64,000 nt of DNA from Limisphaerales bacterium (GCA_965203425.1 OZ241891.1:809310-873309), one strand, 5' to 3'. Shown: positions 6,565 through 63,248, counted from the stretch's first letter. The notes: generated from the letters alone by a model not told the origin. Numbers and translations are program-made.

Positions 6565-6698
6565 AGAAAGGAAAAGATAGCGGCGGTCGCTAGTTTTTGT
6601 CAAAACCGAATTTTATTTTGTCGAAAATCCAAACGGACAAAGTGCGTTCACAAAAGCGGCAACGGGCAACATCTTGGTTTTGTCAAAGCGGGGTTTTA

Positions 6699-9600
6699 TT
6701 AGGCGGGTGACAAGTCTGCGGGCAAGGGATTGGTTTCTTCTTGGGTTTCTTCGGTTTTTTCGGGTTGTTCGGTTTGTGGTGCCGGTTTTTCTTCGGGGGG
6801 GTGGTTGTTGGGTTCTTTTTGGAATTTGACGCTGACCAAACGGCTGACGCCGCGTTCTTGCATGGTGACGCCATAAAGAACGTCGGCGGCGCTGATGGTT
6901 CGTTTGTTGTGGGTGATGATGATGAACTGGGAGTGCTGGAGGAAGCGTTTGAGGATGTTGAGGAAGCGGTCGATGTTGGATTCGTCCAGCGGGGCGTCCA
7001 GCTCGTCCAGCAGGCAAAAGGGGCTGGGCTGGACTTGGTAAATGGCGAAGAGAAGGGCGACAGCGGTCATGGTTTGTTCGCCGCCGGAGAGGAGGCGGAT
7101 GTTTTGGAGGCGTTTGCCGGGCGGGCGGGCGACGATGTCGATGCCGCTTTCTAGAACGTCGGTTTGGTTGCTGAGGTTGAGGTCGGCGTTGCCGCCGGCA
7201 AAGATTTCTTGGAAGAGGATGCGGAAGTTGTCGCGGATGCGGTGGAAGGTTTGGAGGAACATTTCGCGGGTTTGGGCGTGGATGCGGTTGAGGACTTCGT
7301 GGAGTTCGGTTTTGGCTTGGACGAGGTCGTTGTGTTGGTTGGTGAGGAATTGGAAGCGTTGTTCAGTTTCTTGGCATTCTTCGATGGCGACAAGGTTGAC
7401 GGGGCCGATGGAGTCTAGTTTTTGTTGTAGGAGGCGGATTTGTTGGACGACGGCTTCCCAGTTGGTGGCGATGCCGGCTTGTTGCATTTCTTCGGGGGAG
7501 AGGGTTTGGATTCTGGTTTGGCCTTCGAGGGTTTCGGTGATGGTGATGGTTTCGCTGCGGATGTCGAGGAGGTTGGTTTGGTATTTTTCTTCGATTCTGC
7601 GGCAGATGTTTTTGGCTTGGAGTTCGTCTTGGGCGAGGGAGAGTTCGAGTTGGTGTTTTTGTTGGCGGTTTTGTTCGAGTTGATCGCGGAGGGTTTGGAG
7701 TTCGGTTTCGCTTTGGTTGATTTGGGTTTTGTGAACGGCGCTTTGCTGGAGGAGTTGGTTGGTTTTTTGTTGGTTGGTTTTTTGTTGGTTGGCGAGGGAT
7801 TGGAGTTGTTGGCGGCTGTCGGCGAGGGCGTTTTGGCTTTGGGATTGTTTGGCGAGGATGGTTTGGGTTTGGTTGCGGTGTTGGGCGATGGTTTGGGCGA
7901 GTTCTTCCAAGCGTTGTTTGAGGGGTTGTTGTTGGTTGGCGAGGGCGGCGAAGGATTCTTGGCCGGCGGCCAGGTTGATTTTGGCTTGGGTGAGTTGTTC
8001 GTTGGCTTGGGTTTGTTGGAGGCGGGTTTGTTCGAGTTGTTGGGCAAGGTTTTGGAGGGAGGTTTCGGCGTCTGCGGCTTGGGTTTGGAGGCGTTCGGCG
8101 TCTGCGGTCAGTTGATTTTGTTGGGCGAGGGTTTCTTCTTGTTGGCGGGCGAGGGTTTGGATTTCGAAGAGGACGGTTTCGATTTTTTGGCGAAGCAGGG
8201 ATTGGGAGTTGTTGAGGGCGGAGTGTTGGCCTTTGGCAGATGCGAGGGCGACTTCGGCGGTTTTGAGATCGGCTTGGGCTTGCTGCAGTTGGGTTTGCAA
8301 GGCGGTTTGTTCGGCTGTGAGTTCTTCTTTTTGGCAGGTTTTTTGGTCGATAGTTTTTTGGAGTTGGCGTTCGGAGTCGCTTAGTTTGCGGATTTGGTTT
8401 TTGCGGCCGAGGATGGAGGCGGCCGGCTGGTTGGATTTGTCTTTGCGGCCGGCAAGAAAGAGGCCTTGTTGGGTGAGGAGTTCGCCGTCTTGGGTGACAA
8501 AGTCGTATTGGCCTTGGGTTTGTTTCCAGAGGTGGGTGGCTTGCTCCAGATCGGAAACGAGAAAGGTTTGACCGAGTAAGGTTTGAATTACGGGAGTGGC
8601 TGGTGGTTCGGCGGAGATAAGGTCGGCAAGGGGCAATGCGTCTGGTGGCAAGTCGGAGGCGGGATTGGGATTGGTTGGCGGGGTGGTTTTGGCGGCGAAC
8701 AGTTGTAGGGAAAGGAGGCGGGCTTGGCCTTTTTTGGCGTCGCGCAGTTGTTGGATAAGTTGTTCGGCGTCGGTTTGGGATTGCGCAATCAGGGTTTGGA
8801 GGCGGCTGCCGAGCGCGGCTTCGATGGCCGCGAGGTATTCGTCGGGAGCGTGAAGGAAATCTGCCAAAGAGCCGAGGAGATGGGAGGATTGGGCAAGGGC
8901 GGTTGCGGCGGCTTGGTCAAAGCCTTCTCGTTCGGCGTCTAGTTGCCGCAACAAGGCCAGACGGGAACGTTGTTCGGTTTGTTGTTGGAGCAGATTGTCC
9001 AATTGGTTGGTTTGCTCGGCGGATTGGGTTTGCAAGATTTCCCAGCGGCTTTGACGTTGTTGAAGCTCGGCGCGGCGTTGCTGGGCTTGCTGGGTTTGGG
9101 CGGATTGTTCGGTTGCCAGTCGTTCTAGCGAATCGGCCAACTGAATCCGTTCTTCTTCCAACTGGCGCTTTTCGGTGGAAAGCTTTTCCAGCCTTGTTTC
9201 TTGGTTTTTTTTTAGCAAGTCTAATGCGCTTGTTTGGTTGCGGTTTTCCGCTAATTCCTGCGCTTTTGCAAAGGCTTCTTTCTGCATTTGGCGATGCGCT
9301 TCTTCTGTTATTCTCAGGCTTTCTTCGATTTCGTCCGTCTTGCTTTGGCTCTCTTCAAGGAAACTCTTTTGGTCGGCTAAGGTTTGCTCGGCTTCCTGCA
9401 ACTTTGCCCGCAAGGCGTTTTGCTCTTTCTCGCTCTCTTGTAGCCGTTGCTCCGCCCGCTCTATCGCTTCGTTGGCTCGTCGCTCTTCCTCCGACGACTC
9501 TCGTTGTCGCTCTTCCTCAAAGCCAATCCGACTCCTCTGTTGCTCAATCTGGTTCTCTATCGCCAAACCCTCTTCTCTCGCTTGATGAATGCCTCGATCC

Positions 9601-10454
9601 AACCCGGCAGCCGCTTCCCGTTCTTGACGCAAGCCTTCTTCTGCCTCAATCCTCCGCTCCGTTCCCAACGCCATCTCTCCGCTCAATCGTTCCGCCTCCG
9701 CTTTCTTCCCCACAATGCCCGCTTCCAAGCCGTCATATTCATGCCGAGCATGTTGCGTTTCTAAATGTTGCAGCTCCGCCCGAATCTGTTGATACCGACG
9801 CGCCTTTCCCGCCTGCCTTTGCAACGAGCCAATCTGCCGCTTCACTTCCCTAATCAAATCTTCCACTCGCCTCAGGTTCTGCTCCGTTGCCTCCAGTTTT
9901 CGCATCGCCTCCCGCTTCTGCGCTTTAAACCTCGTAATCCCCGCCGCCTCTTCAAACAACATCCGCCGCTCTTCCGGCTTGCTCGACAATATTTGCGTGA
10001 TATGCCCCTGCGCCATGATGCTGTAACTCGCCCGTCCCACGCCCGTCCCCAAAAACAACTGCTGAATATCCTTCAACCGACAAGGCGCTTTGTTAATGAA
10101 GTAATCACTACCGCCGTCGCGAAACACCCGTCGCGTCAAAGTCACTTCGTTGTAGTCCAATGGGATGCCGGCCGCTTCGAGCGACTCCTCGTCTATGCCG
10201 CTCATCGTCAGCGACACTTCCGCCATCCCCAACGCCTTGCGCTGATCAGTGCCGTTGAAAATCACATCGGCCATCTCTCCGCCCCGCAACGCCTTGGCCG
10301 ATTGCTCCCCCAACACCCAACGAACCGCATCCGCCACATTCGACTTCCCACAGCCGTTCGGACCGACAATCGCCGTCATCCCCGCCTCAAAGTCCATAGC
10401 GGTTCGCTCGGCAAACGACTTGAATCCCAACAACGTCAGATTCTTCAACTGCAT
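6699..10454 (-). CDS. smc: Chromosome segregation protein SMC
   Basis: GFKSF, Walker [10 protein letters not shown], hinge, LSGGE signature, LDELDAPLD Walker B. Confidence 0.97.
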
Positions 10455-10977
10455 CGGCAGGCAAAATGCCAGCATTCCCTAGCCAAACAAAGCCAAAAAA
10501 CTACAAACCAAAAAACGCTTAACAAGAACAACAGCGAAACGCCGGGCAAAACTCACGACCAAAACAAACCACTCGGCAGCCTTTCTACATCCCCAGTTCT
10601 TTCTCAAATCATAAAGCGCAATCTTGCCCTCTCCTTATCCCAAGCATCCACAAAATGTTCGCTTGACAGCCGACTGAATAGAGCGGGTTGGATAATATTG
10701 CGGCACAACGAATTAGAAAAGAAAAAGGCGTCAATAACAATTGAAGAGGGAATTCGCTATGTAGGTTTTGATGGATAAGAGGAAAAAGAAGAGGAAACAT
10801 GGTGAATAACAATCTAGATTGTAAAACAAGCCCGGCATGACAATCTTATGATGGCTTTGCTTGTTCCCTGAGAATGAGCACAAGATCCAGAGAACAAGTC
10901 TAGCTTTCTCTTATATGGACAACGACTTAGTCGGTTGTGGAAGCCTAAGCATGTCTATGCAAAGCGGAAAAGATAGC

Positions 10978-12138
10978 TTACTCGCTTTCTGAGGAAGTAG
11001 GCGTTTCTTGCGCTGGCTCTTCGGCTTGGCGGGCTTTTGTGCGTTCTTTGCGCTGGCGTTCTCGCTCCATCTCTTTGAAGACGGGATTGCGCTCCATCTC
11101 TTCTCTATAGCGCCGCTCGTGTTCTTGCTGCGCTCGCTGTTTTCTATCCTGTTTGATTAGCTGGTTGTATTGTGTAGCTACCTCTTTCTCATGGCTGTCC
11201 GGCTCTCTCGCCCAAGCTTCCGCCGCCGCCGCCATTTCTTCGTCAATCTTTTTGAGTTCTTCAATCAAAGGCGCGTCTAAGTCTTGATAGCGTTGTTCTT
11301 TGGCGGCGGCGATTTTCTCTTGAATCCAGCTTTCGTCATCGGGGTTGTCAAGGGGGATGCCGATGGTTTGAGCGGTTTGCTCGATCCATTGGATATGATC
11401 GGCGTGCCAGTTGGGATCTGCGGGGTCGCCTTGGTTGAGTTCTGTTTGAGAGAAGTTGCGGCGATCTCGCAAGAAAGCGGCCACTTCCTGCCAAGGTTCG
11501 GGGTCTGTTTCCCAGCCGGTTTGGATTTTGTTGATCGCATCTTGCGCCTTTGCTTCGGCAATGGTGGCGGTGCTGTTAGGCAGGTCTTGAGGACGAACTA
11601 CATTTCTGTTTAATGTGCGCTCGAATTTTTCCCACATGGCATCCCAAGCCTCATCGCTTCGCCGGCTTGTTTGTCTGGAAATCCAATCGTCCAAGTCGGC
11701 TACGGCCCGGAAGTCTGGATTCGTTTTGTACTTGGCTATTTGTCTCTTGTCGTACCAATCTTCTATCTCGTCCGAACTATCTTGGTATCTTTCCATCCAG
11801 TTGCCGCTTGGGCTGTTGTGATAGGCTTCTTGCTTTTTCCGATAGGCTTCGTTTTCTGCCTCTAATGCTTTGAATTCTTCTTCGGATAAAGGCTCGATCT
11901 CTGAAGTGGATTGCCTTCGCATTCCGGCAAAGGGATCGATTGGTTTCTCCATCTCTGAATCAACCGTTGTTTCTTGGTTTGAGGCTGGCAGTTTGTTGGC
12001 GGCGGTTGAGGTTTCTTCTTTGCCATCCAATTGCGCCAGCCAGAAGATTCCTACCAGCGCCGCCAAACCAATCCCAATAATCACGTAGCTTTGTTTTCTC
12101 ATCGTCAAAGATTCCTTTCCTGCTTTGTTTTCGGTCAT
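10978..12138 (-). CDS. Hypothetical acidic helical protein with N-terminal membrane anchor
   Basis: 386-aa ORF; TM YVIIGIGLAALVGIFWLA; E/D/Q-rich; starts 3 nt after the upstream gene's stop. Confidence 0.75.
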   Translation of the reverse strand: MTENKAGKESLTMRKQSYVIIGIGLAALVGIFWLAQLDGKEETSTAANKLPASNQETTVDSEMEKPIDPFAGMRRQSTSEIEPLSEEEFKALEAENEAYRKKQEAYHNSPSGNWMERYQDSSDEIEDWYDKRQIAKYKTNPDFRAVADLDDWISRQTSRRSDEAWDAMWEKFERTLNRNVVRPQDLPNSTATIAEAKAQDAINKIQTGWETDPEPWQEVAAFLRDRRNFSQTELNQGDPADPNWHADHIQWIEQTAQTIGIPLDNPDDESWIQEKIAAAKEQRYQDLDAPLIEELKKIDEEMAAAAEAWAREPDSHEKEVATQYNQLIKQDRKQRAQQEHERRYREEMERNPVFKEMERERQRKERTKARQAEEPAQETPTSSESE

Positions 12139-12141
12139 TTC

Positions 12142-12840
12142 TTAGTCGTCGTCTCCTTCGTTGTCAAGACAATCTCCGTAATGAGCATCTAGTGCCTCAT
12201 TTTCTTTTCGATGTTTTTCGTTCGCCCACTTGACCATTTTTTCCCACCAATCGCGAATTTTGCCCAAATCATCGACCAACTCGTAAATTTGTTGCCGCAA
12301 ATCATGCATAGCCTTTCTGTGCTTTTTGACTAAATCGTCCAATTGCTTTAGCCGCGGATCATTGACGTTAGGGTAGAGACGAAAATACAGATCCATTTTC
12401 CAGTCTATTGCGCTTATGTATGCCCGCTGGTGGAAATCTATCTGACGCTCTATTCTTTTAATAGCGTCATTGAAAGGTTTGCATTTGGCGTTGTAGGTTC
12501 TTTCGATGGCCTGATAAAAATTCGCCTGCTGATTCTCGAGCATCAATCTTACTGCGTTGTAATACTCGAAACAAGTGAAGGTGCCGGGCGGAACTGGCGG
12601 GAAAGCTGGTTCTGGCACAGGGCCGGGATCGGGCAAATCGGGAAGCTCAGGAATTTCAGCCGATGGTCCGGTGGTTGGGGTTGTCAAGGCAACCGCAATT
12701 ATTGTTGCTATGGCGAGGATCGCCGTTTTTCCGCTGATCGGGGACTGGGATGTCGCCGATTTCACGACTGCTTGGCGGTGCGGGTTGCTTGCTTTGGCTA
12801 CGCGAGCCAACCAGTTCCAATAAAAAGAGGAGTTTTTCAT
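12142..12840 (-). CDS. Hypothetical exported helical-hairpin protein
   Basis: Hydrophobic leader AILAIATIIAVAL, Pro-rich linker, long helices bracketed by CFEYYN and YGDCLD; ORF track start 12897. Confidence 0.7.
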   Translation of the reverse strand: MKNSSFYWNWLARVAKASNPHRQAVVKSATSQSPISGKTAILAIATIIAVALTTPTTGPSAEIPELPDLPDPGPVPEPAFPPVPPGTFTCFEYYNAVRLMLENQQANFYQAIERTYNAKCKPFNDAIKRIERQIDFHQRAYISAIDWKMDLYFRLYPNVNDPRLKQLDDLVKKHRKAMHDLRQQIYELVDDLGKIRDWWEKMVKWANEKHRKENEALDAHYGDCLDNEGDDD

Positions 12841-13203
12841 ATCGTCGAATAAATACACTGTTGTTCTTTCTGATCCGTGGCCGTCAGGCCTGACCAATTA
12901 TTCTCTGTCGGAAAAAAACGCGAAGAACTCCGCCTGTTTGCCGAAGCAACAGGGAAGGAGCATATCGGCTCTCCCAAGTCAAAAATCAAACTATGACATC
13001 TGAGCGGGAGACCCGATTTTCACGGAAACCCACATCAGAAAATAATCGGTCAAGAGCGAGAAAATCACAAAGCAACTTCGCGCGCAAGCTTTTTTCTCGA
13101 TATTCCAAAGAAAAGTTTTGGTTGGAAAAGTGCGATTTTTCTTTGTTATTTCGATGTTTTGAGATTTTTGAGACATCGCCTGGGAAGTTTTTCATTTTTT
13201 TTC

Positions 13204-13240
13204 TTGCCGTGGATTGCCGCGGATTGCCGTGGATTGGCGG
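13204..13240. repeat. 10-bp tandem repeat (TTGCCGYGGA)x3 plus a degenerate copy
   Basis: ttgccgtgga ttgccgcgga ttgccgtgga ttggcgg read directly. Confidence 0.8.
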
Positions 13241-13302
13241 AGTTTGGCGAGGGGGTTGGCTTCGGTTTTTGGGGAAGGGTTCTGTATTTTTCAGCATTGG
13301 TT

Positions 13303-15033
13303 TTATTTTGCGTTGGGGAGGAGGGCGGCGGCGTGTTTTCTGGCGGCGGGGATTTTGCCGCCGAGCATGCGGGCAAGTTCGTCGATGCGTTGTTTGGTTT
13401 TTAGGGGGTGGACTTGGGTGTGGGTGCGGTTGTTTTGGGTGGTTTTGGCGACTTGGAGGTGGTGGTTGGCGTTGGCGGCTACGGGGGCGAGGTGGGTGAT
13501 GCAGAGGATTTGTCGGCGGTTGGCGAGGTGTCGCATTTTTTGGCCGACGGCGTGGGCAGTTTCGCCGCCGATGTTGGCGTCCACTTCGTCGAAGATGAGG
13601 AGGGGGATGTGGTCTTGGGCTGTGAGGACGGTTTTGAGGGCGAGCATAACACGGGCGATTTCGCCGGAGGAAGCGATTTTTTTAAGAGGGTGGAGGGGTT
13701 CGCCGGGGTTGGGGCCGAAGAGGAATTCGATGCGTTCGGCGCCGGCGGGGCGGAGGCGGGCGGTTTCTTCGCTGTTCTTTGGTTCGACGGGTTGGTGGGG
13801 GATGAGTTGGACTTCGAATCGTCCGTTGGGGAAGCCGAGGTCTTTGAGTTGTTTTCGGGCGGCTTTGGAGAGGGATTTGCCTTTTTGGGTGCGGGCGGCG
13901 GTGAGTTTTCGGGCGCTGGCGATGAGTTCTGTTTTCAGTTGGGCGATTTGGCGGTCGATTTGTTGGACTTCGGTGTCTCTGGATTCAAGGGATTTTAGTT
14001 TTTGGCGGGCTTGGTTTCCGAATTGGATGATTTCTTGGATGGTGGATCCGTATTTGCGTTTGAGGGTTTGGAGTCGGTTGATTTGTTCTTCGAGTTCTGC
14101 GAGGTGGTTGGGGTCAATGTGGATGGTGTCTAGGTAGAGGGAGAGTTGGGTTTGCCAGTCGTGGGTTTGTTCGGCGAGTTGGGCGTGGGTGTCGGCGAGG
14201 GGTTGGGTTTGGGGGTCGAGTTGGGTGAGTTGACGGAGTTCTCGGCCAATTTGGGCGAGGGCGTCGGTGAGGGAGGGGTTGGTTGTTGGTTCTCCGCTGT
14301 TCCAGTTGCTTTCTGGGTTGCCGAGGGTGTTGAGGATGGTTTGTCCGAGTTGGCAGATTTGAGCGGCGCTTTGGGCGCGCTGGTAGTTGTTTTCGAGGGT
14401 TTGTTCGTCGAGGCGGGCAAGTTGGGCCTCGTCGATTTCCCGGGTTTGGAAGCGAAGGAGGTCTATTTGGCGGGCGCGGGCTTGTTCGTCGGCGAGGATG
14501 GTTTGTTTTTGATGGAGTAGGGTTTTCCATTGAGTAAATTGCTGGGTGTAGGCGAGTCGGTCGGCGGTGATGCCGGCGAATTCGTCTAGAAGTTCGAGTT
14601 GTTTTTGGTTGTGGAAGAGGGATTGGTGGTCGTGGGGTCCGTGGATGTCGACGAGGTGTTGGCCGAGTGTTTCGAGAGTGGAGAGGGAGGCGGGGGAGTG
14701 GTTGACGAATTGGCGGTTGTTGCCGGCGGTGGTTACGGTGCGGCGAAGGAGAAGTTGGTTGTTTTCGCAAGGTTCGAGGCCGTTTTTGGCGAGGAAAGTT
14801 TCGATAGTTGTGTTGAGGAAGGAGATGTCGAAGATGGCTTCAATGGCGCAGTTTTCGGCGCCGGCGCGGATTAGTTTGCGGTCGGCGCGTTGTCCGAGGA
14901 GCAGGCTGAGTGCGCCGATGATGAGGGATTTGCCGGCGCCGGTTTCTCCCGTTAGGGTGGTGAAGCCTGCCTCGAATTCAAGAGTGACGTCGTCCGCCAA
15001 TCCGAAGTTTTTGATGCGAAGCGCGGTAAGCAT
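13303..15033 (-). CDS. recN: DNA repair protein RecN
   Basis: TGETGAGKS, DIHGPHDHQ, ASSGEIARVMLA, IFDEVDANIGG. Confidence 0.96.
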   Translation of the reverse strand: MLTALRIKNFGLADDVTLEFEAGFTTLTGETGAGKSLIIGALSLLLGQRADRKLIRAGAENCAIEAIFDISFLNTTIETFLAKNGLEPCENNQLLLRRTVTTAGNNRQFVNHSPASLSTLETLGQHLVDIHGPHDHQSLFHNQKQLELLDEFAGITADRLAYTQQFTQWKTLLHQKQTILADEQARARQIDLLRFQTREIDEAQLARLDEQTLENNYQRAQSAAQICQLGQTILNTLGNPESNWNSGEPTTNPSLTDALAQIGRELRQLTQLDPQTQPLADTHAQLAEQTHDWQTQLSLYLDTIHIDPNHLAELEEQINRLQTLKRKYGSTIQEIIQFGNQARQKLKSLESRDTEVQQIDRQIAQLKTELIASARKLTAARTQKGKSLSKAARKQLKDLGFPNGRFEVQLIPHQPVEPKNSEETARLRPAGAERIEFLFGPNPGEPLHPLKKIASSGEIARVMLALKTVLTAQDHIPLLIFDEVDANIGGETAHAVGQKMRHLANRRQILCITHLAPVAANANHHLQVAKTTQNNRTHTQVHPLKTKQRIDELARMLGGKIPAARKHAAALLPNAK

Positions 15034-15139
15034 GGAAAAAGATGAATCCGGGAAACAATTTTATGTTATGTTGACAGGCAGTTTTACCGAGCGGTGAAGT
15101 TCAATCAATCTAAATCCGGCCAACGGCAAAAATCATCGC

Positions 15140-15922
15140 ATGGCGTTTCGATTTATTTTTTTGGGAAGCGGCACTTCCCAAGGCGTGCCGATCATCGGCG
15201 CGGATTATCCGCCGAAGTTTTTGGCGAATCCCAAGAATCATCGAACGAGGTCGTCGATTTATGTGGAGACGGATCATGTTCGGTTGGTGGTGGACACAAC
15301 GCCGGAGTTTCGCTTGCAGATGCTCCGCGAAAAGATTCGGCGATTGGACGCCGTGCTGATTACCCACGGGCATGCCGATCACATTATGGGGATGGATGAC
15401 TGCCGGCGGTTTTGCGAGATGCAAAATTGCCGGATGCCGCTTTACGCCAATGCGGAAACTATGGAGGCCGTTCGGCGGGTGTTTGCCTACGCATTCAAGC
15501 CGAGGCGAAGGTGGCGGGGATATTTTTATCCGGACCCGAAAATCGTGGATGGACCTTTTGAAGTGGGGGATTTGAGGATCACCCCTATTCCGCTTTCTCA
15601 CGGGCGGATGACGGTTTTGGGCTATTTGTTTTGCCAACAAGGAAAGCCGAAGCTGGCCTACTTGACGGATTGTCGAGAAGTCCCGGAAGCCGCCTTCCCG
15701 CAACTGCATAGCCTTCCCGCGCTGGTGCTGGACGCTCTTCGCAAGAGGCCGCATCCAACGCACATGTCTTTGGACGAAGCGCTGGCGGCCTCCCGCCGCA
15801 TTCGGGCGGAACAGACTTGGCTGACGCATTTGACGCACGACTACGATCACGACGTGGATCAAGCGGAACTTCCGTCAACCGTGGCTTTGGCCTACGATGG
15901 CCTTCAAGTGAGCCTGACTTGA
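15140..15922 (+). CDS. MBL-fold metallo-hydrolase (PhnP-like)
   Basis: [26 protein letters not shown] motifs. Confidence 0.9.
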
Positions 15923-16073
15923 TTTTTTGCTTCCTTTGCGCAAAAATTGGAAAATCGATTCGGCAAACGCAACCAATAGCGCAGAAATGCCTTGACCAGA
16001 CAAAACGTTCCTCTTCTTAATCAAGCGCCGACCGCGCCGCTGTTGAAATGTTGAAAACGAGAGAGTTGATTGG

Positions 16074-17774
16074 ATGTTGAATAGGAAAATCGCTTTGAAA
16101 GAATGGAAAAACATGCCGTTAACGGTAGCCGTCGCGTCGTTGAGTGGCGCGCTTTTGGGCAATTCTGTCCCAGCAAGCGAGTCTGCGGAGAGTGAGTCCG
16201 TGGTCGTCGTTTTCAACCAAAACCTTCCCGATTCGGAATCCGTCGCCCAACACTACGCAACCAAACGCCGCATTCCCAAAGATCAGATTCTTGGCTTGGA
16301 CTTGCCAGACAAAGAAACCGTTTCCCGCGCGGTCTTCCAAAAAAAGTTGCAAGGTCCGTTGGCGGCAATTTTTCGGAAACGGGGTTGGTTTGAGTTTGAA
16401 GACGTAGTGAAGGAAAAAGCGGAGGAAGCCGTTCCCAAAGTCAAAAAATCTTCCATCCGCTACCTGACGCTGTGTTATGGAGTACCGCTTCGGATTCAAT
16501 CTGACCGAACAATTCAGGAGGAGGGAATGGAGGAACTTCCGCCCGAAATGCGGCGAAACCAAGCGGCGGTGGACAGCGAATTGGCAACACTCCCCAACCC
16601 CTTGAAGTTGTACGGCTGGCGTCCCAATCCGGTTTACGGGACGACCAACTCGCTGGTAATCCGGCCGGAAAAGGGGATTTTGATGGTGGCTAGACTGGAC
16701 GGCCCCTCGCCGCAAATTGCCAAACGACTCGTGGACAAAGCCATCGCTGCGGAACAAGACGGCCTTTGGGGACGGGCTTACTTCGACCTGCGCGGATTGG
16801 AGAGCGGAGAGTATAAACTGGGCGACGACTGGATTGCCCACGCGGCTGCCCTCAGCCGGCATCTTGGTTTTGAAACCTATGAAGACCGAAAGCCCGAGAC
16901 CTTCCCTGAAACCTTGCCGATCAGCCACGCGGCTTTGTATGCCGGTTGGTATGACGCCCACGTCTCCGGCCCTTTTCGTCGGGAAAAGGTTGAGTTTATG
17001 CCGGGCGCTGTTGCCTATCATCTGCATTCTTACAGCGCGCTGACCATCCGCTCGAAAACCGAACGTTGGGTGGGGCCTTTGCTGGAAGCGGGCGCAACCG
17101 CCACAATGGGCTGCGTTTACGAACCTTATTTAGCACTGTCGCCGCAGCTGCATATTTTCTTTGAAAGCCTATTTCGCGGCTTCAGTTTTGGAGAGGCTGC
17201 ATACGCCTCCCAACTAGCAATCTCTTGGCAGACGACAGTGGTTGGCGATCCGCTTTATCGTCCCTTTGCCAATCTGCCCGCTCTTCAGGCAAAGCTGCAA
17301 CGCGAAAACAGCCCTTTGATCGAATGGCTAATCCTGCTGAACATCAACCGGGCCATCGCCGGCCAAATATCGATGGACCAAATTCTTGAGTCCATCAAGA
17401 ACGACGCCGATGTTCAAAAGAAAATTCAAAAGAGCGCAGTGCTAACCGAGAAATTGGGGGACCTGCACTATGAGCAAGAAAAGCGCGCCGAATCCACCCG
17501 CCTTTATCGGGAAGCGCTGCAACGAAAGCCATCGCCGCAGCAAGATCTTCGAATTGGCCAACGCTTGGCGACGCTTCTTCAGCAAACCGACAAAGAAGCC
17601 GAAGCCGTTTCCGTGTATTTGAACCTGATCGAACGGCATCCGTATTCCGCCGGCAAAACCGAAATGTTGCGCAAAGCCCGAAACCTTGCCGAAAAACTAG
17701 ATTTGCGGGAGAAACTTCGCGAAATACAACGACTCTCCGCCGATGAGGAAAAAACCAAATCCGCCGCTCAATGA
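16074..17774 (+). CDS. TIGR03790-family protein with TPR-like tail
   Basis: AAVDSELA, VARLDGP, YAGWY, PGAVAYHLHSYSA, GCVYEPYL, GDPLYRPF. Confidence 0.85.
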   Translation: MLNRKIALKEWKNMPLTVAVASLSGALLGNSVPASESAESESVVVVFNQNLPDSESVAQHYATKRRIPKDQILGLDLPDKETVSRAVFQKKLQGPLAAIFRKRGWFEFEDVVKEKAEEAVPKVKKSSIRYLTLCYGVPLRIQSDRTIQEEGMEELPPEMRRNQAAVDSELATLPNPLKLYGWRPNPVYGTTNSLVIRPEKGILMVARLDGPSPQIAKRLVDKAIAAEQDGLWGRAYFDLRGLESGEYKLGDDWIAHAAALSRHLGFETYEDRKPETFPETLPISHAALYAGWYDAHVSGPFRREKVEFMPGAVAYHLHSYSALTIRSKTERWVGPLLEAGATATMGCVYEPYLALSPQLHIFFESLFRGFSFGEAAYASQLAISWQTTVVGDPLYRPFANLPALQAKLQRENSPLIEWLILLNINRAIAGQISMDQILESIKNDADVQKKIQKSAVLTEKLGDLHYEQEKRAESTRLYREALQRKPSPQQDLRIGQRLATLLQQTDKEAEAVSVYLNLIERHPYSAGKTEMLRKARNLAEKLDLREKLREIQRLSADEEKTKSAAQ

Positions 17775-17838
17775 AGATAAGCCGGCAGGAGGCAACTGAA
17801 CCTGCGGCCTCTTTGATTTTCGTTTCTCATTTCGGACG

Positions 17839-19020
17839 ATGGAAAATTTCGATTCCCGGCGCGATTTTGCGGCAGTTTTGGCTCGTTTGATGGATCAAGA
17901 GGCGGATCAAGGCTTTGATTCCTCCGCACTGGATGATCGCGCTTTTGGACGACTGGCCATCGCCTTGTTTCGGCTACAAGTTCAATCCAATGAGTGTTAT
18001 CGGCGCTTTGTCGAGTATTTGGCAAAATCCAAGCCCAAAACGCCTGCGTTCCTGACAAGTCAAAAGGCGAATTGGCGGCAGATTCCCTGCGTTCCCACTT
18101 CGGCGTTCAAAGAGTTTGAGATTACTTCCCTGCCGAAGGCTCAACGATCTTTCGTGTTTCAATCCAGCAGAACCTCAGGGCAAAATCCAAGCCGGCACTT
18201 TCATTCCAAAGACTCTCTCGCTCTCTACGAAAAAAGCCTCGCCCATTGGTTTTTCCATCATTTTCCGCCGGCGAATCCAGAGACCGAAAGGCTTTTCATC
18301 TTGACTCCGCCGCCGATTGAAACGCCGAATTCCTCCCTCGTTCACATGTTGGAAACCGTGCGTAGGTGGCAAGGTTTTCCAAAGTCTGTTTTCTACGGCC
18401 GATTAATTACTGGCGAAAAATGGGGAGTGGATGCGGACCGGTTGCTGATAGACTTGCGCCAAGCCAGCCGCCGAAATTCTCCCGCCGCATTGCTGGGGAC
18501 CGCCTTCAACTTCGTGCAATTGCTGGACGCTCTGGGCGCAAGCCGCCAGACGCTGTCTTTGCCACCGGGAAGCCGGCTTCTGGAAACCGGAGGATACAAA
18601 GGACGAACCCGCGAGCTGACAAAAGCCGCGCTTTATCGCCAACTGGAAGCCTGCTTGGGAATTCCTTGCGGTCGGATGATTTCAGAATACGGGATGAGCG
18701 AATTGTCTTCACAGGCCTATGACGGCCGTCTGGACGCCAAAGATCTTTGCCTTTGCGTTCGTAGTGTCCCGCTGTTGAATCCAGCGAGGCCCTTTCGGTT
18801 TCCGCCGTGGGCGCGTTGCCAAGTAATCGTCCCAGAAACCGGGCAAGAAGCGGAAGAAGGCAAGACGGGGTTGATTCGAGTGTTCGATTTGGCAAACGTC
18901 TGGTCCGTCATGGGATTGCAAACAGAGGACTTGGGACGGCGACTTTCCGGAGGCATAGAACTTTTAGGACGGGCCGCCAATGCGGAAGCGCGAGGTTGCT
19001 CCCTGATGCCAGAAACCTGA
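17839..19020 (+). CDS. LuxE-like acyl-protein synthetase
   Basis: VPTSAFK, FQSSRTSG, ETGGYKGR, EYGMSELSSQAY, QTEDLG, GRA..AEARGCS. Confidence 0.88.
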   Translation: MENFDSRRDFAAVLARLMDQEADQGFDSSALDDRAFGRLAIALFRLQVQSNECYRRFVEYLAKSKPKTPAFLTSQKANWRQIPCVPTSAFKEFEITSLPKAQRSFVFQSSRTSGQNPSRHFHSKDSLALYEKSLAHWFFHHFPPANPETERLFILTPPPIETPNSSLVHMLETVRRWQGFPKSVFYGRLITGEKWGVDADRLLIDLRQASRRNSPAALLGTAFNFVQLLDALGASRQTLSLPPGSRLLETGGYKGRTRELTKAALYRQLEACLGIPCGRMISEYGMSELSSQAYDGRLDAKDLCLCVRSVPLLNPARPFRFPPWARCQVIVPETGQEAEEGKTGLIRVFDLANVWSVMGLQTEDLGRRLSGGIELLGRAANAEARGCSLMPET

Positions 19021-19031
19021 AAGATCAAAAA

Positions 19032-20402: not shown

Positions 20403-20761
20403 AGGTGGAACTGCGAAAAACCTTTCAATTCGAAGCGGCGCACCTGCTCCCCTTCCTCCCCAAAAATCACAAATGCCGGCGCCTGCACGGACACAGCTTC
20501 CAAGTGGAAATCACCGTCGCCGGCGAATGCAATTCCCAGCTAGGCTGGCTCATAGACTACGCAGACATCTCCAAAGCCTTCCAACCCCTGTGGGAACAAC
20601 TCGACCATCGCTATCTCAACGAAATACCAGGCCTGGAAAATCCCACCAGCGAAGTCCTTTCCAAATGGATTTGGGATCGCCTGAAACCCAAACTGCCCCT
20701 GCTTACAACCGTCACCGTCGCCGAAACATGCAACGCCGCCTGCGCCTACCAAGGCGCCTAA
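20399..20761 (+). CDS. queD: 6-carboxy-5,6,7,8-tetrahydropterin synthase
   Basis: FEAAH, CRRLHGHSF, LDHRYLNEIPGLENPTSE; ATGA overlap with the upstream stop. Confidence 0.95.
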   Translation: MKVELRKTFQFEAAHLLPFLPKNHKCRRLHGHSFQVEITVAGECNSQLGWLIDYADISKAFQPLWEQLDHRYLNEIPGLENPTSEVLSKWIWDRLKPKLPLLTTVTVAETCNAACAYQGA

Positions 20762-23452: not shown

Positions 23453-23547
23453 CCGTTGCTAGCGGTCGGTGATTTGTAGCCGCTAGTCTCCGCGCTGACG
23501 GGAATTTGTTGTTTTGACTTTGCCGTTTGCTTTGCTTTCATCAATGC

Positions 23548-46535: not shown

Positions 46536-46537
46536 GG

Positions 46538-49116: not shown

Positions 49117-49175
49117 CGTTCTGGCAAGGGAAAAGTTTGGGTTGGGATTGTCGTGGTTTTTGCGAGAGAGGAAGG

Positions 49176-55943: not shown

Positions 55944-57275
55944 TTATTGGCCGGCAGGGCGGCGCGGCTGAGGGCGGAAGGATTCCCATTGTTCCGCGCT
56001 GATTTCTTGGGCTTGGTGTTGGTGAACAAAGACACCTTTTTTGTTACCGACGATGACTTCGAGAAAGCCATCCGCGTTTAAGTCTTTAGCTAACACTTGA
56101 GTGCCGACGCCGGAGTCATCGTCAATAAGAAAGGGGATGAAGTCCACAGCGCCTTGGCGACGGTCGAGTTTGAACCAATACAAAACGGCGGGGGCGTTGG
56201 GCTCGGCGTCTGCTCTTGGCCCGTGCGCCCAAAAGCGTTTTCCGGTGATGATGTCTTTGAGACCGTCTTGATCTATATCGGCCAAGTATAAGGCGTGCAG
56301 TTGGGAAAATTTAACTCCGTAGCGGTTTTCCTCCGGTTCTTTGTTCATAAAAACGCGGGCTTGGAATTGAATGGATCCATCTTGCTGAATGTTTTCATAC
56401 CAAGCCAGGCCATAGCCGTGAGCGGCGAGGCTGGTAATGACGTCGTTGTCTCCATCCCCGTCTACATCGTAGGCATACATTTGCGCGCCGCCGCCGGGAC
56501 TAAAATCCACCGGATGAAACCGCCAAGCCGGGTCTCCGGCCAAAGAAGGCGGTTGTTCCCACCAACCGTTCTTTTCGAGAATGTCCCGCCGTCCGTCACC
56601 ATTGACGTCGCCAACGCCCATGCCGTGCGTAAAGCGTTGCCATGAGCCTTTGGGCGTCACCGGGCGGAACGGCCATGGTTTCGTCGGCTCGTCCCAATCC
56701 GGCGCGGCAAATCCGAAGTAACCGCCTGAGTTGCACACAATCTCCGGCCGTCCGTCTCCGGTCAAATCGGTAAAATGCGGGGATTCATTGTCGGTGACGG
56801 CAAGGGCAACATGCGCCTTCCAAAAGCGCTCGGCGCCGCGGGGATTCTCATACCAAATGGTTTCTTTTCCGGGAAATCCAAAAACCAAAACGTCGTCCCA
56901 TCCGTCTCCGTTAAAGTCAAAAACAAAGATCAGAAAGTTGTTGGAGTAAGCGTTTCTCCCGCTCAATGCGCCGGGATAGCCGGGGATGATTTTGGCAGAG
57001 CCCGCCGCTTGTTTCAAAAGAAAGGACTCTCCATCCGGATAGTAAGTATGCCGCTTAAGAAAATCAGGCCCCTCCCACCAATACGGACCGGAAACCACGT
57101 CCAGAACGCCATCGCGGTTAAAGTCACCGACGCTTGCGCCCTCACTCCAAAACTGATCGCTCAACTGAATCTTATGGAAAACATGGCGATAATGAGCGGC
57201 CTGGCCGCTTACCCCGTGCCAAAAAACAACAAGGAAAAACAAAAACTCGGTAAAACGGAACATCCCCTTAATCAT
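55944..57275 (-). CDS. FG-GAP/VCBS repeat secreted protein
   Basis: Repeated D(F/V/L)NGDG..D(V/I)(L/I) motifs; signal peptide. Confidence 0.9.
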   Translation of the reverse strand: MIKGMFRFTEFLFFLVVFWHGVSGQAAHYRHVFHKIQLSDQFWSEGASVGDFNRDGVLDVVSGPYWWEGPDFLKRHTYYPDGESFLLKQAAGSAKIIPGYPGALSGRNAYSNNFLIFVFDFNGDGWDDVLVFGFPGKETIWYENPRGAERFWKAHVALAVTDNESPHFTDLTGDGRPEIVCNSGGYFGFAAPDWDEPTKPWPFRPVTPKGSWQRFTHGMGVGDVNGDGRRDILEKNGWWEQPPSLAGDPAWRFHPVDFSPGGGAQMYAYDVDGDGDNDVITSLAAHGYGLAWYENIQQDGSIQFQARVFMNKEPEENRYGVKFSQLHALYLADIDQDGLKDIITGKRFWAHGPRADAEPNAPAVLYWFKLDRRQGAVDFIPFLIDDDSGVGTQVLAKDLNADGFLEVIVGNKKGVFVHQHQAQEISAEQWESFRPQPRRPAGQ

Positions 57276-58473
57276 CCTAAAATATTTCCATTAGTCAATC
57301 GAGAATTACGATGGCGGCAAATTTTCCATTTTCTCATCTTCGGCTTCCGAAAAAAGCGCAAATTCACGCCAACCAACCAATCCAAACAAATCCCGACAAT
57401 CTTCTCCTTCACATAAAAGAAAACACCGCAAAATTCCTTTCCCGTCGCCATACCAGCCGATGCTCTTTGACTAATCCGATACTAATCTATCTCAAAACCC
57501 TCATCCAACCGCCAACAAAACAAACAAAAACCTAGAATCCCCAAACCAAAGCCAGCAAACCGCGCGGACACCCGGCTTGGACGCAACCATCCACCAAGCG
57601 AATCCTACTCCCCCATTCGCCCTAGAAAAAAGAAATCACCCCCCTCCCCAACAAACGCCAACCGCTAATCCCATAGACAAATCTTCCCTCCATTCCTCAT
57701 CCCTAATCCTTAATCGACCATCTTCATTCAGCGAATTCCACCTTTGCCTCCCGGCCACCAACCACCGCAGAAGAGAGAAAAGCCAACTCCTCCTCACTCC
57801 CCCAAACAAAAACTTGAGAATGCGCAGATCGCAAACAGTTCCGGCACAATCTCTCGCCCTCTGCTCGCTAATCCCGCATCTCGAATCCATGCACCGCTTA
57901 GCCATCACCTCACAAAACTCCCTTGCCCGCATCGGCAAAGCGGCCCTTTCTTTGCCGACCGCAAGGCGGAGGATTGCGCTTTTGGGGGGATGCGTTGTTG
58001 GGCGGTGGCTTCCGTGTCATTCTGAATTCCAAAGTCTCCGCTTCCAAACAAAACAATCCTCTTTTTGCTCTGGCCAGCCAGCCAGCCAAACTTGCATCCC
58101 CGAAACTTCCTCCCCCGCAACGACAAAGAGGCCATTCTTCGCCAAGCGCAAGACAAAGGAGGATTTTCTCCCTCTTGGATTTCCTTTTGACCATGCTTTT
58201 GGACGAAGGCAACAGCCAGCGGCCGCTGTCCGCAAGGAGGGATTCTCGTCATCAGCAAAGCGCTTTTTCTCTCGTTCTTGTCATCTCCAACGAACTTTTC
58301 TTCATTTTTTCTTCATTTTTTCCTCTTTTTTGTGATTTTCTGCTTGACGCGAGGGGAATGAGAGCGTATTTGTTATTCAAATTGCATTGCGAATTAGGTT
58401 GCATTGCGGATTCGTTTGTGGGAAAGTCAGTTTGTTTTTACGGTGATTTGATTATTTTTTATTATTTTTTGTT

Positions 58474-59358
58474 ATGAAAGAACAAAAACATTTGAACGGT
58501 AGGAAGGCGAATTTGTCAAAATTCGGGCATCGGGCATCGGGCATCGGGCATCGGGCATCGGGCATCGGGCATCGGGCATCGGGCATCGGGCATAAGTCTG
58601 CTCTTTTAGCGGCGTTGATAGTGTCGGCGCTCTCTTTGGTTTCTTTGGAGCAAAGTCAAGCCCAGCTTCTTCTCACCATCAATCCCCTCCAAGGCGATAC
58701 CAACAACACAACCGTCTGGTCTTTCTCTGGCAGCTCCACCGCCTCCCAAACCAGCAACATCTCGGCCTCATCGGCAACATCCTTCGGCAGCAGAGGAAGC
58801 ATTAGCCCTTACGACGCGGTGGCCAATTTAGTGAACCTTCCCAGTGGCGGCACGCAATTCCTCACCTCAAGCGCGCCATCCCGATACTCAAGCTCGGGAA
58901 GTTACCATTCCTTGACGGCCAACTCCGCCAACCGGCCGCAGGTCGCCACGCCTTCCGGCACTAGAACCATCAGCCATATCTACTTGGTTAATGATTTCCA
59001 GTTGGATACGGTGGGCATTCGAGTCTCCGGAACAACTCCGCTCAGCTACACCAATGGAGCCTCTGTTTCTTGGACTGGGCAAGGCACCATGCCTTATCCT
59101 ATCGGCGACTTCAGTGTTACCGCCGCCAACCAGTATTATTACAACTTCCGATTCGGCCCTTATTTTGCGACGGCCGGCACTTTGGGGACGCCGAGTTCTG
59201 GCGGCTTTCGGATAATGGTTTCCAGCATGCCAAAGGCTTTGGTCCCAGAACCAGAGGAATATGCATTTGTGTTAGGTTTGTTTGCCTTGGCTTTTGTCAT
59301 TCTCCGCCGCCACCTCCAAAAGAAACAACGCCAAACCCAAGCCACCCCAACTTCGTAG
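58474..59358 (+). CDS. PEP-CTERM surface protein with heptamer repeat in leader
   Basis: Signal ...SQAQ; Ser/Thr-rich body; VPEPEEYAFVLGLFALAFVILRRH. Confidence 0.92.
   Translation: MKEQKHLNGRKANLSKFGHRASGIGHRASGIGHRASGIGHKSALLAALIVSALSLVSLEQSQAQLLLTINPLQGDTNNTTVWSFSGSSTASQTSNISASSATSFGSRGSISPYDAVANLVNLPSGGTQFLTSSAPSRYSSSGSYHSLTANSANRPQVATPSGTRTISHIYLVNDFQLDTVGIRVSGTTPLSYTNGASVSWTGQGTMPYPIGDFSVTAANQYYYNFRFGPYFATAGTLGTPSSGGFRIMVSSMPKALVPEPEEYAFVLGLFALAFVILRRHLQKKQRQTQATPTS
58523..58592 (+). repeat. (TCGGGCA)x10 perfect tandem repeat inside coding leader
   Basis: Counted directly: 10 units, 70 bp. Confidence 0.97.
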
Positions 59359-62713: not shown

Positions 62714-63184
62714 AAGGCGGCCGAATCTCGCTTGGACTTTTTTGAGTTGGAGGCGGTTGTCGGGGTTCTGTTTTTGGTTTGGCGCGAAGGGATTCGCTTG
62801 TTGATTGGATTTGTTTAATAAGGGGCGGGGAAGATGAAGATTGAGTCGGTTTTTTCCACCGCCCGATGTGCGCCGCTTTTTTTGCTTAAACGGCATGCTT
62901 GTTGTTGTTAGGATTGGCTTTGCCGTCGGCGTCGTGAGGCGGGAGATGGGGTTTTATGTGTTTTCTCTTATTCTTCCGCTTGGTTTCATTCACGGCGCCG
63001 GCGGCTTTTCTTCCGCCGGTTTTGAAATGCGCCGATTTTTTGCTTGGCTTTTGATTTATGGACGGACACCGTCGCCGTCTTCGAGGAAGCGAAAGCGGGG
63101 TTGGTTTTCTGGTTTGTTGATCTCGATTTGGCGATGAAGGTTGGGGAATCTTGTTTTTGGACGCAAAATTCTTTTGAATTGGGA

Positions 63185-63213
63185 TTGACTTTGCCGGCGC
63201 GCGGGGTTATTTT
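63185..63213 (+). promoter_or_regulatory. Putative sigma70 promoter for the PEP-CTERM gene
   Basis: TTGACT-N17-TATTTT, 35 nt upstream of ATG 63249. Confidence 0.4.
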
Positions 63214-63248
63214 TCATTTTTTAAACGGCAAATAATTTGCGATTTTTT

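Follow-up and report, generated by a model that had tools for sequence, protein, structure and literature searches.

The asymmetry of replichores, known as GC or keto skew, is among the closest described systems to the pattern reported here, with G in excess over C and T over A on one strand, the same polarity at its switch and, presumably, the same chemistry, in which the strand left single-stranded for longer is deaminated. However, replichore skew comprises one switch pair per chromosome with an amplitude of a few percent, whereas the chromosome of the Limisphaerales bacterium studied here (GCA_965203425.1; G000 hereafter) carries hundreds of wedges, each ~2.5 kb long and with a GC skew that can reach 0.6-0.7, which scarcely depend on the replichore and lie atop an ordinary pattern of ~0.02. 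On the heavy strand of vertebrate mitochondrial DNA, C>T and A>G changes build up in proportion to single-stranded time, and, as in the wedges, both fall on one strand and shift codon and amino-acid usage; unlike the single gradient per 16-kb mitochondrial genome, which is set by strand-displacement replication from defined origins, several hundred short gradients are found here on a 4.2-Mb chromosome with a normal origin. Immunoglobulin switch regions are R-loop-prone and GC-skewed, and AID deaminates them. GC-skewed CpG-island promoters and terminators are also prone to R-loops (PMC3787257). These eukaryotic R-loop regions share with the wedges kilobases of G-rich strand starting from a defined site, with the displaced strand open to deamination; their transcription has been mapped, and no sequence-context signature of a deaminating enzyme was seen in the wedges.

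Mammalian skew N-domains (PMC2764438, PMC3320577) have the same shape as the sawtooth: the skew jumps up abruptly, in their case at replication initiation zones, and then declines slowly until the next jump. N-domains are megabase-scale and of low amplitude, with mapped origins and co-oriented genes, whereas the teeth described here span kilobases and consist of one-sided elements, with genes that are not co-oriented and jumps at repeat islands. Constitutive stable DNA replication, which R-loops prime at oriK sites in rnhA mutants of E. coli (PMC7045392, PMC12000880), resembles the case of G000 in the lack of RNase HI (none was found in G000), in its dispersed non-oriC sites and in its origin-like polarity. 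It belongs to laboratory mutants, involves few sites and is not known to leave a compositional footprint; unlike in that case, RNase HI is here also missing in relatives without the skew. Genomic islands have been described as insertion hotspots near chromosome-scale ori/ter GC-skew switches (PMC3148964), where, as here, accessory DNA coincides with changes of skew sign; in the present genome, the islands are themselves flanked by local outward wedges. We found no bacterial description of a strong local mutation pattern of kilobase wedges.

The window, a stretch of 64,000 nucleotides (OZ241891.1:809310-873309), had been predicted from inspection by eye to carry a kilobase-scale sawtooth of strand skew with many resets, and this is confirmed, genome-wide. 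Within the window, G+T ranges from 0.26 to 0.74 per kb (1-kb windows), and GC skew reaches +0.61 at 28-29.5 kb and -0.72 at 21-22 kb. Chromosome-wide (4.23 Mb, 4232 windows), G+T has an SD of 0.074, compared to 0.016 expected from binomial chance. The tooth positions read by eye are those of the computed profile, and the five hand counts are all exact (7741, G24/C3; 9661, G7/C29; 28561, G26/C4; 31141, G6/C30; 21481, no G). The C-to-G, origin-like polarity proposed for the resets is borne out by the surplus of sharp rises of G+T over sharp falls, 46 vs 5 with 500-nt arms and a threshold of 0.25, 11 vs 0 at a threshold of 0.30, and 34 vs 4 with 300-nt arms and a threshold of 0.30, an upward dominance unaffected by the choice of strand read.

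The sawtooth is strong and is no artefact. Logan contigs from three different studies show 0 differences from the window over 6001-10598 and 13322-21173, two independent assemblies of related genomes run collinear with it across the reset at 13.1 kb, where 900 nt align at 85% and 77% identity, and the smc, recN and debranching-enzyme orthologues of two relatives, G001 and G006, have the same skew profile. An assembly or sequencing artefact, including a coincidence of resets with assembly joins, is excluded by these identical contigs together with the junction and profiles that recur in independent assemblies. Among the short-read contigs listed, breaks fall inside repeats (10.6-13.3 and 21.2-24.2 kb), where only long assemblies bridge.

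Each tooth is composed of two one-sided wedges that start from neighbouring sites and point at each other. A wedge has a sharp onset in an intergenic spacer and fades over ~2.5 kb, the G/T-rich strand being the one that leaves the edge 5'->3'. Averaged over 69 distinct sharp edges, G+T of the outward strand is 0.44 immediately before the edge and 0.70, 0.64, 0.60, 0.56, 0.54 and 0.51 in successive 500-nt bins past it, while GC content remains constant at 0.51-0.54; in this profile, an excess of T over A accompanies that of G over C. Most sharp edges (58/72) are intergenic or lie at most 100 nt from a gene end, and no jump above 0.2 was seen at any of 336 gene midpoints. Symmetric two-sided reset sites were also considered and rejected, because the window profiles resolve most teeth into one-sided wedges.

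The first reset of the window, at ~6671, lies just beyond a Sel1-repeat gene of multi-copy DNA (5413-6603, minus strand; Pfam Sel1, E=4e-91; 39-44 other BLAST matches). From it, a rightward G/T-rich wedge (6671-9200, plus strand; G+T 0.70-0.74) runs antisense through the 3' half of smc, a gene call that rests on the SMC_N and hinge domains, with the same profile in G001 and G006. A leftward wedge (9900-10600, minus strand; plus strand C/A-rich, GC skew -0.36) enters the 5' end of smc from a low-copy island at 10600-13136 (2-5 other copies in the repeat profile), which holds two genes without Pfam families. A conserved element of ~300 nt at ~12900-13136 has 26-27 copies in the genome, and a wedge follows in 26 of 27. 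In the window, this wedge (13136-15500, plus strand; G+T 0.69-0.71, edge jump 0.31) covers the entire recN gene, antisense; the skew profile of recN, identified by its RecN Pfam domains, is common to the G001 and G006 orthologues and absent in G003 and G004.

Further to the right, a leftward wedge (19000-22400, minus strand) leaves the plus strand C/A-rich; G+T falls as low as 0.26, G makes up 7% at 21-22 kb, and 1.6 kb of the wedge (20.8-22.4 kb), without an ORF of at least 150 aa, is among the most skewed DNA of the window. A high-copy repeat island (21000-24400; 8-30 other copies; its contigs have 5-35 times the depth of the flanks) separates two teeth, and composition places a G/T-rich wedge at 24400-25500 (plus strand), over the 5' part of a PQQ-dependent dehydrogenase gene and running with it. 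The strongest G/T-rich wedge (27416-30000, plus strand; GC skew 0.61) occupies the first 2.6 kb of an LTD/CotH gene, the residues encoded in it (the first ~870) being rich in G, V, E, W and R. The repeat profile shows no repeat at the 27416 edge, and none at that of another G/T-rich wedge recognised by composition (36876-39000, plus strand), which lies antisense over a formyltransferase gene and the genes beside it. The zone of low-copy repeats at 43-48.5 kb sends out a leftward wedge (41500-44700, minus strand; plus strand C/A-rich, G+T 0.37-0.44), and a G/T-rich wedge (49136-52500, plus strand; G+T 0.68-0.69) runs with the glycogen-debranching-enzyme gene over its first 3.4 kb. Another leftward wedge (56500-58300, minus strand; plus strand C/A-rich, G+T 0.35) comes from the island at 57.5-59.5 kb, which contains members of an 89-member paralogue family, and a new G/T-rich wedge begins at 62716 (62716-63500, plus strand; edge jump 0.32), adjoined by repeats at 61.5-62.5 kb.

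That resets tend to sit at accessory islets, as the original prediction held, agrees with the whole-chromosome counts: repeats lie at 250 of 385 edge sides vs 110 of 385 control sites, the other 135 edges being without a detectable repeat. Jumps of skew across spacers are almost confined to repeat-bearing ones. Between unique core genes, spacers of 700-1500 nt show a jump of +0.014 without repeats (n=202) and +0.098 with repeats (n=47), and repeat-bearing spacers of 3-8 kb one of +0.150, with 49% above +0.15 and 1% below -0.15. The two flanks of 497 islands average 45% and 55% G+T, decaying over ~2.5 kb. Wedge strength grows with repeat length (Spearman rho 0.35), with identity (+0.059 at 70-78%, +0.144 at 92-97%) and with copy number; the flanks of a DDE transposase family (17 ORFs) showed no wedge. 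Synteny with a relative at 92% nucleotide identity is restricted, in the window, to 6.7-13.0 kb, and rearrangement at islands is heavy.

The skew is mutational. In the strongly skewed set (385 segments, 445 kb), G+T of the skewed strand at third codon positions is 0.77 where the gene runs with the wedge and 0.80 where it runs against it, compared to 0.58-0.66 at first and second positions; ORF-free DNA, at 0.66, is below third positions, and the skew thus persists at synonymous as well as intergenic sites. Polarised changes were counted in smc, recN and the debranching-enzyme gene, and in smc separately. In the G/T-rich wedges of the G000 lineage, C>T stands at 0.060 vs 0.018 for G>A, A>G at 0.046 vs 0.010 for T>C, and C>G numbers 29 vs 11 for G>C, an asymmetry slightly inflated by the classing of sites by G000's own composition; it is far smaller in the G001 lineage (C>T 0.030 vs G>A 0.027). 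The skew is still building up: on the G/T-rich strand, C>T, A>G and C>G changes are over-represented. C>T and A>G are both raised on one strand and composition is graded from a fixed start, as in a gradient of single-strand time, and the substitution pattern fits the damage that had been proposed for a single-stranded strand leaving the reset 5'->3'. One-sided mutation beside multi-copy accessory DNA makes one strand G/T-rich and shifts even protein composition.

Our preferred reading, in which our confidence is evenly balanced, is that the sawtooth is what a local mutation bias, specific to one strand and one lineage and still active, has left over time on an exposed outward strand, with R-loops favoured over DNA-synthesis bubbles as the source of single-strandedness; the cause of the exposure is the part that we infer. 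Several hundred fixed intergenic sites, mostly spacers full of multi-copy accessory DNA, would each have the strand leaving 5'->3' repeatedly single-stranded, with a probability of exposure that falls over ~2.5 kb. Damage to cytosine and adenine on this strand (C>T, A>G, C>G) would let it drift to G+T and its partner to C+A. The exposure may come from persistent R-loops of untranslated transcripts leaving the islands, as read-through or upstream-antisense RNA. As the displaced strand turns G-rich, the RNA would become G-rich and C-poor, and the process could be self-reinforcing, because such RNA is expected to form more stable hybrids and to be a poor Rho substrate. In single-stranded DNA, cytosine deaminates about 100 times as fast as in the double strand, so that ~1% of time spent single-stranded would give a several-fold asymmetry, a condition that points to a frequent process, transcription for example, and away from rare recombination. 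The missing RNase HI of G000 and the missing endonuclease V are compatible with R-loops, and so are the wedge-free DDE transposase flanks if this family is, as we presume, weakly expressed. A consensus promoter scan, with 6 sites vs 10 +/- 4 expected, is uninformative on outward transcription. Several observations speak against R-loops. Of the 385 edges, 101 lie between two genes that both point at the edge and so have no annotated promoter close by, 135 have no detectable repeat, ORF-free DNA is less skewed than third positions, and tRNA genes and divergent promoters, described below, have no wedges. The rise of wedge strength with repeat length, identity and copy number follows more naturally from a recombination-driven process.

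Such a process is outward DNA synthesis from the islands, primed by a D-loop, a nick or an R-loop, which would peel off the outward strand or leave it unreplicated for a few kb. These abortive mini-origins, as distinct from chromosomal origins, are the nearest surviving form of the idea of dispersed initiation sites in the original prediction; we regard this account as unlikely but credible. It fits the polarity, the dependence on repeats, the heavy rearrangement at islands and the irrelevance of gene orientation inside or just outside the wedge (72, 79, 101 and 133 edges in the four classes of gene arrangement around 385 edges). No RNase HI was detected in G000, and E. coli that has lost this enzyme can prime replication from R-loops. 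However, rare recombination would need implausibly long single-stranded lifetimes by a rough estimate from deamination rates, D-loop forks are not expected to die within ~2.5 kb, and the DDE transposase flanks are without a wedge. Neither a Y1-type HUH nickase nor a reverse transcriptase was found in the genome, and RecG, MutS, Mfd and UDG are all present.

Selection on RNA composition, with transcripts bound for an island kept C/A-rich and G-poor, as good Rho substrates that shield the islands from read-through, and outgoing ones G/U-rich, appears improbable. Rho is present, the coding strand is C/A-rich at gene 3' ends that face large gaps, and third positions are more skewed than ORF-free DNA, as selection at synonymous sites could give. 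However, a Rho loading site needs about 100 nt, far below the 2-3 kb of the wedges; the amino-acid composition is rewritten at a cost, as over the first ~870 LTD/CotH residues; T over A goes along with G over C; the region at 20.8-22.4 kb is among the most skewed without an ORF of at least 150 aa; and the pattern is identical in both orientations relative to genes.

It is very improbable that each reset is a true bidirectional origin of normal replication. The C-to-G polarity of every reset and the likeness in shape to the N-domains (PMC2764438, PMC3320577) would agree with dispersed chromosomal origins, but this part of the original prediction is largely refuted by a single ordinary ori/ter pattern and by the short, mostly one-sided wedges, whose skew is lost by ~2.5 kb rather than extending to the next site. 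Cumulative GC skew has one minimum, at 3.33 Mb, and one maximum, at 1.25 Mb, the two positions at which the predominant gene strand also changes, and the one dnaA is at 3.11 Mb. Across the chromosome, the replicative skew is small (about 0.02), wedge direction is barely linked to the replichore (111:86 vs 89:99), and genes show no co-orientation with the forks that such origins would set up (234 against, 151 with).

It is likewise very doubtful that the skew is the usual asymmetry of transcribed sense genes, which comes from deamination of the non-template strand and transcription-coupled repair of the template. The argument that equal polarity in plus and minus genes excludes transcription is empty, since a tooth running from G/T to C/A is its own reverse complement and a gradient anchored at the ends of genes or operons would give the same picture. 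Mfd is present, and third-position G+T on the coding strand drops along genes of either strand, the mean of 1038 genes of at least 400 aa being 0.535 at the start and 0.409 at the end, a mean gradient that results automatically from wedges anchored at gene boundaries. Tested directly, the sign of the skew is independent of gene strand: the first gene is antisense to the wedge in 234 cases and co-directional in 151, the coding strand is the C/A-rich one in 196 kb of the strongly skewed segments and the G/T-rich one in 130 kb, contradicting the expected sign in most wedges, and the sign flips inside the single gene smc. High transcription alone does not appear to produce wedges: both sides of 48 tRNA/tmRNA genes average 48-50% G+T with no wedge, the 1.5 kb before and 3 kb after tRNA-Trp, where gene order suggests tuf and genes for ribosomal proteins, are near-neutral, divergent promoter regions between core genes jump by merely -0.02 to +0.03, and no effect was seen at tight operon junctions. 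A mosaic in which repeat-mediated inversions shuffle a strongly skewed ancestral chromosome would place sign changes at repeats of a rearranged genome, but it is extremely unlikely and is refuted by the surplus of rises over falls (46 vs 5, and 49% vs 1% at large repeat spacers, where a block gives one of each), by skew that fades with distance rather than staying flat across a block, and by a replicative skew of only about 0.02.

Gene inventories were compared across G000 and 30 relatives. A profile search found no RNase HI (PF00075) in G000 nor in 24 of the 30 relatives, unskewed ones included, and no endonuclease V in any of the 31 genomes; since both are also missing in trait-free relatives, their loss alone cannot be the cause. 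RNase HII is present in G000 along with RecG and Rho. The wedge trait is limited to one subclade: the SD of G+T is 0.069-0.089 in G000, G001, G006, G007 and G004, 0.042-0.048 in G003 and G013, and 0.017-0.029 in five relatives without the trait (G005, G016, G018, G019 and G027).

In the window, the composition of the two strands swings widely, with GC skew per 1-kb window spanning +0.61 to -0.72 and the keto (G+T) fraction reaching 0.26 at its lowest and 0.74 at its highest. C and A drop jointly where G and T climb jointly and G+C remains at ~0.5-0.6, so composition varies along a keto-amino axis, in agreement with the original prediction; the per-line base counts on which that prediction drew were exact on recount (5/5). 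Over the whole 4.23-Mb chromosome (4232 one-kb windows) the standard deviation of G+T is 0.074, compared to a binomial expectation of 0.016, and a deviation above 0.12 is seen in ~10% of the one-kb windows. Sharp rises outnumber sharp falls under all three settings applied to the chromosome (46 vs 5, 11 vs 0 and 34 vs 4), and since the reverse complement of a rise is again a rise, this excess of rises belongs to the duplex itself.

The concern that the resets, the abrupt jumps in skew, are assembly joins is answered by the agreement of independent contigs and assemblies. The stretches 6001-10598 and 13322-21173 show 0 differences in independently assembled contigs of runs from three studies, while a fourth run, X6, labelled as a sponge metagenome, holds a relative that is ~1-4% different. 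At the 13.1-kb reset, the relatives G001 and G006, both independent assemblies, are collinear across the junction of recN with its leader, and their orthologues of smc, recN and the debranching-enzyme gene have the same skew profile as those of G000, the genome holding the window. The proteins crossed by wedges are real, given strong Pfam matches to SMC, RecN, LTD+CotH, GDE, PQQ dehydrogenase and formyltransferase.

The teeth are composed of one-sided wedges. On the outward strand (5' to 3' away from the edge), mean G+T at 69 sharp edges is 0.44 just before the edge and 0.70, 0.64, 0.60, 0.56, 0.54 and 0.51 in successive 500-nt bins past it. Of 72 sharp edges, 58 fall between genes or no more than 100 nt from the end of one, and a jump of more than 0.2 was seen at none of 336 gene midpoints. 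Tight gene junctions carry no skew jump, and divergent promoter regions almost none.

It had been argued that equal polarity in + and - genes excludes transcription as the cause. This argument is void, because a G/T-to-C/A tooth is its own reverse complement and looks the same on the other strand; accordingly, the mean third-position G+T of the coding strand falls from 0.535 to 0.409 along 1038 long genes on either strand. The conclusion itself, that the sign of the skew is not determined by gene orientation, is upheld by direct tests on 385 segments of strong skew (defined by 600-nt windows whose G+T is >=0.66 or <=0.34; 445 kb in total). In these, 196 kb have a C/A-rich and 130 kb a G/T-rich coding strand, the wedge runs against its first gene in 234/385 and with it in 151/385, and all four arrangements of flanking genes occur at the edges (72, 79, 101 and 133). 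Genes were called as greedy longest ORFs, with errors among short ORFs, and the counts that rest on them were limited to ORFs with a minimum length of 100-400 aa. Spurious ORFs of at least 300 aa lie opposite real genes within wedges, as at 7440-8384 (+), 13214-14137 (+) and similar ones, because stop codons are rare there.

Edges are marked by repeats. Another copy exists for 17% of the chromosome (megablast self-comparison), mainly as paralogous families including Sel1 and LRR proteins and, as the largest, 89 ORFs of ~250 aa that match no Pfam family and begin with signal-peptide-like sequences. G000 is very repeat-rich, with expanded Sel1 and LRR families. Between unique core genes, the mean jump across spacers of 300-700 nt is +0.006 without repeats (n=262) and +0.104 with them (n=18); the corresponding values are +0.014 (n=202) and +0.098 (n=47) for spacers of 700-1500 nt, and +0.053 (n=11) and +0.150 (n=143) for those of 3-8 kb, where 49% of the repeat-bearing spacers jump by more than +0.15 and only 1% by less than -0.15. 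Around 497 repeat islands, G+T is 55% on the right flank and 45% on the left, relaxing over ~2.5 kb, and the jump is larger at islands that are longer, have more copies or have copies of higher identity to one another. A more sensitive search found repeats adjoining 250/385 edges, compared to 110/385 control windows beyond the blunt end. The tendency of resets to fall at accessory islets is confirmed, with repeated DNA in all the inter-tooth zones of the window at 5.5-6.5, 10.5-13.5, 21-24.5, 43-48.5, 54-55, 57.5-59.5 and 61.5-62.5 kb; DNA of repeat or paralogue families was located at 57577-59358 and 22072-22404. No repeat lies at the window edges at 27.4 and 36.9 kb, and no wedge was found in the flanks of a DDE transposase family.

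The reset near 13 kb holds a conserved element (12900-13300, - strand sense) of ~300-450 nt with the core motif CTGTGAYATTCAGCRGGMGMCCC. There are ~26 further copies in G000, 27 motif matches in all with one of them doubtful and weak, lying 126-255 nt (in most cases 150-185) upstream of small genes in divergent orientation, whose N-termini vary. A wedge follows the element in 26/27 cases, starting at a T-tract ~100 nt past the core motif. The predicted fold of the consensus scores -14.0 on the gene-sense strand vs -2.6 on the other, and the element may be a structured 5' leader or a regulatory RNA; no Rfam family reached its gathering score anywhere in the window, and in 12700-13400 nothing matched at E<=1.

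The skew of the wedges is mutational and ongoing. Across the 385 segments, G+T on the skewed strand is 0.77 at third codon positions of genes running with the wedge and 0.80 of genes running against it, 0.58-0.66 at first and second positions, and 0.66 in ORF-free DNA. Substitutions were polarised between G000 and G001 with G006 as outgroup in smc, recN and the debranching-enzyme gene; polarisation of the whole window by synteny failed, collinearity with G001 and G006 being limited to 6.7-13.0 kb, and these three genes were used instead for this reason. The smc gene (6676-10499) shares 92.5% nucleotide identity with G001, and the genes on either side of it (3952-6212 and 10817-12131) only ~80%. 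In G/T-rich wedges of the G000 lineage, rates per ancestral base are 0.060 for C>T vs 0.018 for G>A and 0.046 for A>G vs 0.010 for T>C, and C>G was counted 29 times vs 11 for G>C. Substitutions in the G001 lineage are far nearer symmetry, a contrast that may come partly from site classes set by G000's own composition. The central part of smc, with C>T 37 vs G>A 2, is still undergoing conversion. No dinucleotide is strongly depleted in the manner of an enzyme-like deamination context, the largest change being TC at 0.86 of neutral, which speaks for spontaneous damage or polymerase error and not for a context-specific deaminase.

Proteins follow the bias. In the LTD/CotH protein (27404-31231, +), residues 1 to ~870 have a high content of G, V, E, W and R and the final ~400 residues are ordinary in composition, a change that tracks the DNA skew and shows the extent to which the bias reshapes proteins. 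Strongly skewed DNA such as smc may appear more conserved than its surroundings, fewer states being used.

Strong skew occurs in a subclade of one GTDB genus. As estimated from samples of 20-134 kb each for the relatives, the standard deviation of G+T per kb is 0.069-0.089 in G000, G001, G006, G007 and G004, 0.042-0.048 in G003 and G013, and 0.017-0.029 in G005, G016, G018, G019 and G027. G000 has UDG, MutS, Mfd, RecG, Rho and RNase HII. A search of 31 genomes from the order (G000-G030) detected no endonuclease V (PF04493) and found RNase HI (PF00075) in 6 of them but not in the other 25, skewed and unskewed alike; the order as a whole has a gap in deaminated-adenine repair and hybrid removal. 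None of these separates skewed from unskewed genomes, and no gene loss among those searched explains the skew. HUH (Y1) nickases and reverse transcriptases were not found in G000.

Given the polarity of the wedges, the affected strand must have its 5' side at the edge. This geometry would be produced by any of three kinds of process, namely RNA displacing the non-template strand, a strand displaced or left behind by DNA synthesis starting at the edge, or an error-prone polymerase newly making the affected strand. We favour R-loops from untranslated outward transcripts as the cause, because a frequent process alone seems able to hold the strand open for the ~1% of the time needed, as estimated from general rate constants, because G-rich, C-poor RNA would make R-loop formation self-reinforcing, and because the wedge-free transposase flanks, presumed to be weakly expressed, would count in the same direction. 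The dependence of wedge strength on repeat length and identity, together with the complete indifference of wedges to gene orientation, points instead towards recombination-primed synthesis. We propose tentatively, and with more doubt than confidence, that in this Limisphaerales subclade the multi-copy accessory islands are constitutive launch sites of self-reinforcing strand opening, by Rho-evading R-loops or by R-loop- or D-loop-primed strand-displacement synthesis, which would extend kilobases outward and create several hundred 'mini-origin' or switch-region-like domains; these would continuously and strand-specifically hypermutate neighbouring core genes, to the point of remodelling their proteins.

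Other explanations fare worse. Fork stalling at islands, leading-strand gaps, and breaks resected from the 5' end with a deaminated 3' tail are rejected on polarity, because each would expose the strand opposite to that observed, and so are RecBCD/Chi-directed restart and Chi selection, which would expose or enrich it. The dispersed initiation sites of the original prediction, taken as chromosomal origins, are not borne out: cumulative GC skew has a single minimum at 3.33 Mb and a single maximum at 1.25 Mb, half a chromosome apart, gene-strand bias changes over at both, and the single dnaA lies at 3.11 Mb. A sawtooth from Okazaki fragments with fixed priming would give one polarity per replichore and is ruled out because both polarities interleave, wedge direction depending only slightly on replichore (111:86 vs 89:99). 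Polypurine tracts as starters do no better than islands generally (a modest step from 48-49% to 56% G+T at 300 intergenic tracts), and read-through from tRNA genes leaves a mean G+T of 48-50% on either side. A sigma-70 consensus scan gave fewer matches than shuffles, with 6 sites against 10 +/- 4 expected. An inversion mosaic is excluded by the near absence of downward jumps.

A full-text literature search that covered few subscription papers found no bacterial chromosome described as having sawtooth skew on the kilobase scale. The nearest known cases are replichore skew, mammalian N-domains, the mitochondrial heavy-strand gradient, R-loop-associated GC skew and oriK-type initiation in rnhA mutants; the wedges are a new, extreme, island-anchored form of strand-asymmetric mutation. 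Bacterial strand skew is usually regarded as a faint trace of replication on the scale of the whole chromosome. The asymmetry that dominates here acts locally, exceeds that trace ~10 to 30 times in strength and is tied to accessory DNA, and it alters amino-acid composition even inside essential genes, smc and recN among them. Should the cause be R-loops or abortive strand-displacement synthesis, the genome would be a natural long-term record of single-stranded DNA sites in an uncultured bacterium, and accessory islands would burden their neighbours with heritable mutation. Such skew is expected to mislead skew-based origin prediction, composition-based detection of islands and horizontal transfer, gene callers, through the long opposite-strand ORFs, and phylogenetic substitution models. 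Two further contigs of G000, C2 and C3 (22 kb each), have more C than G overall (C 0.28-0.31, G 0.22-0.25), and a selenocysteine tRNA gene is predicted at 154958-155054 of contig C1.
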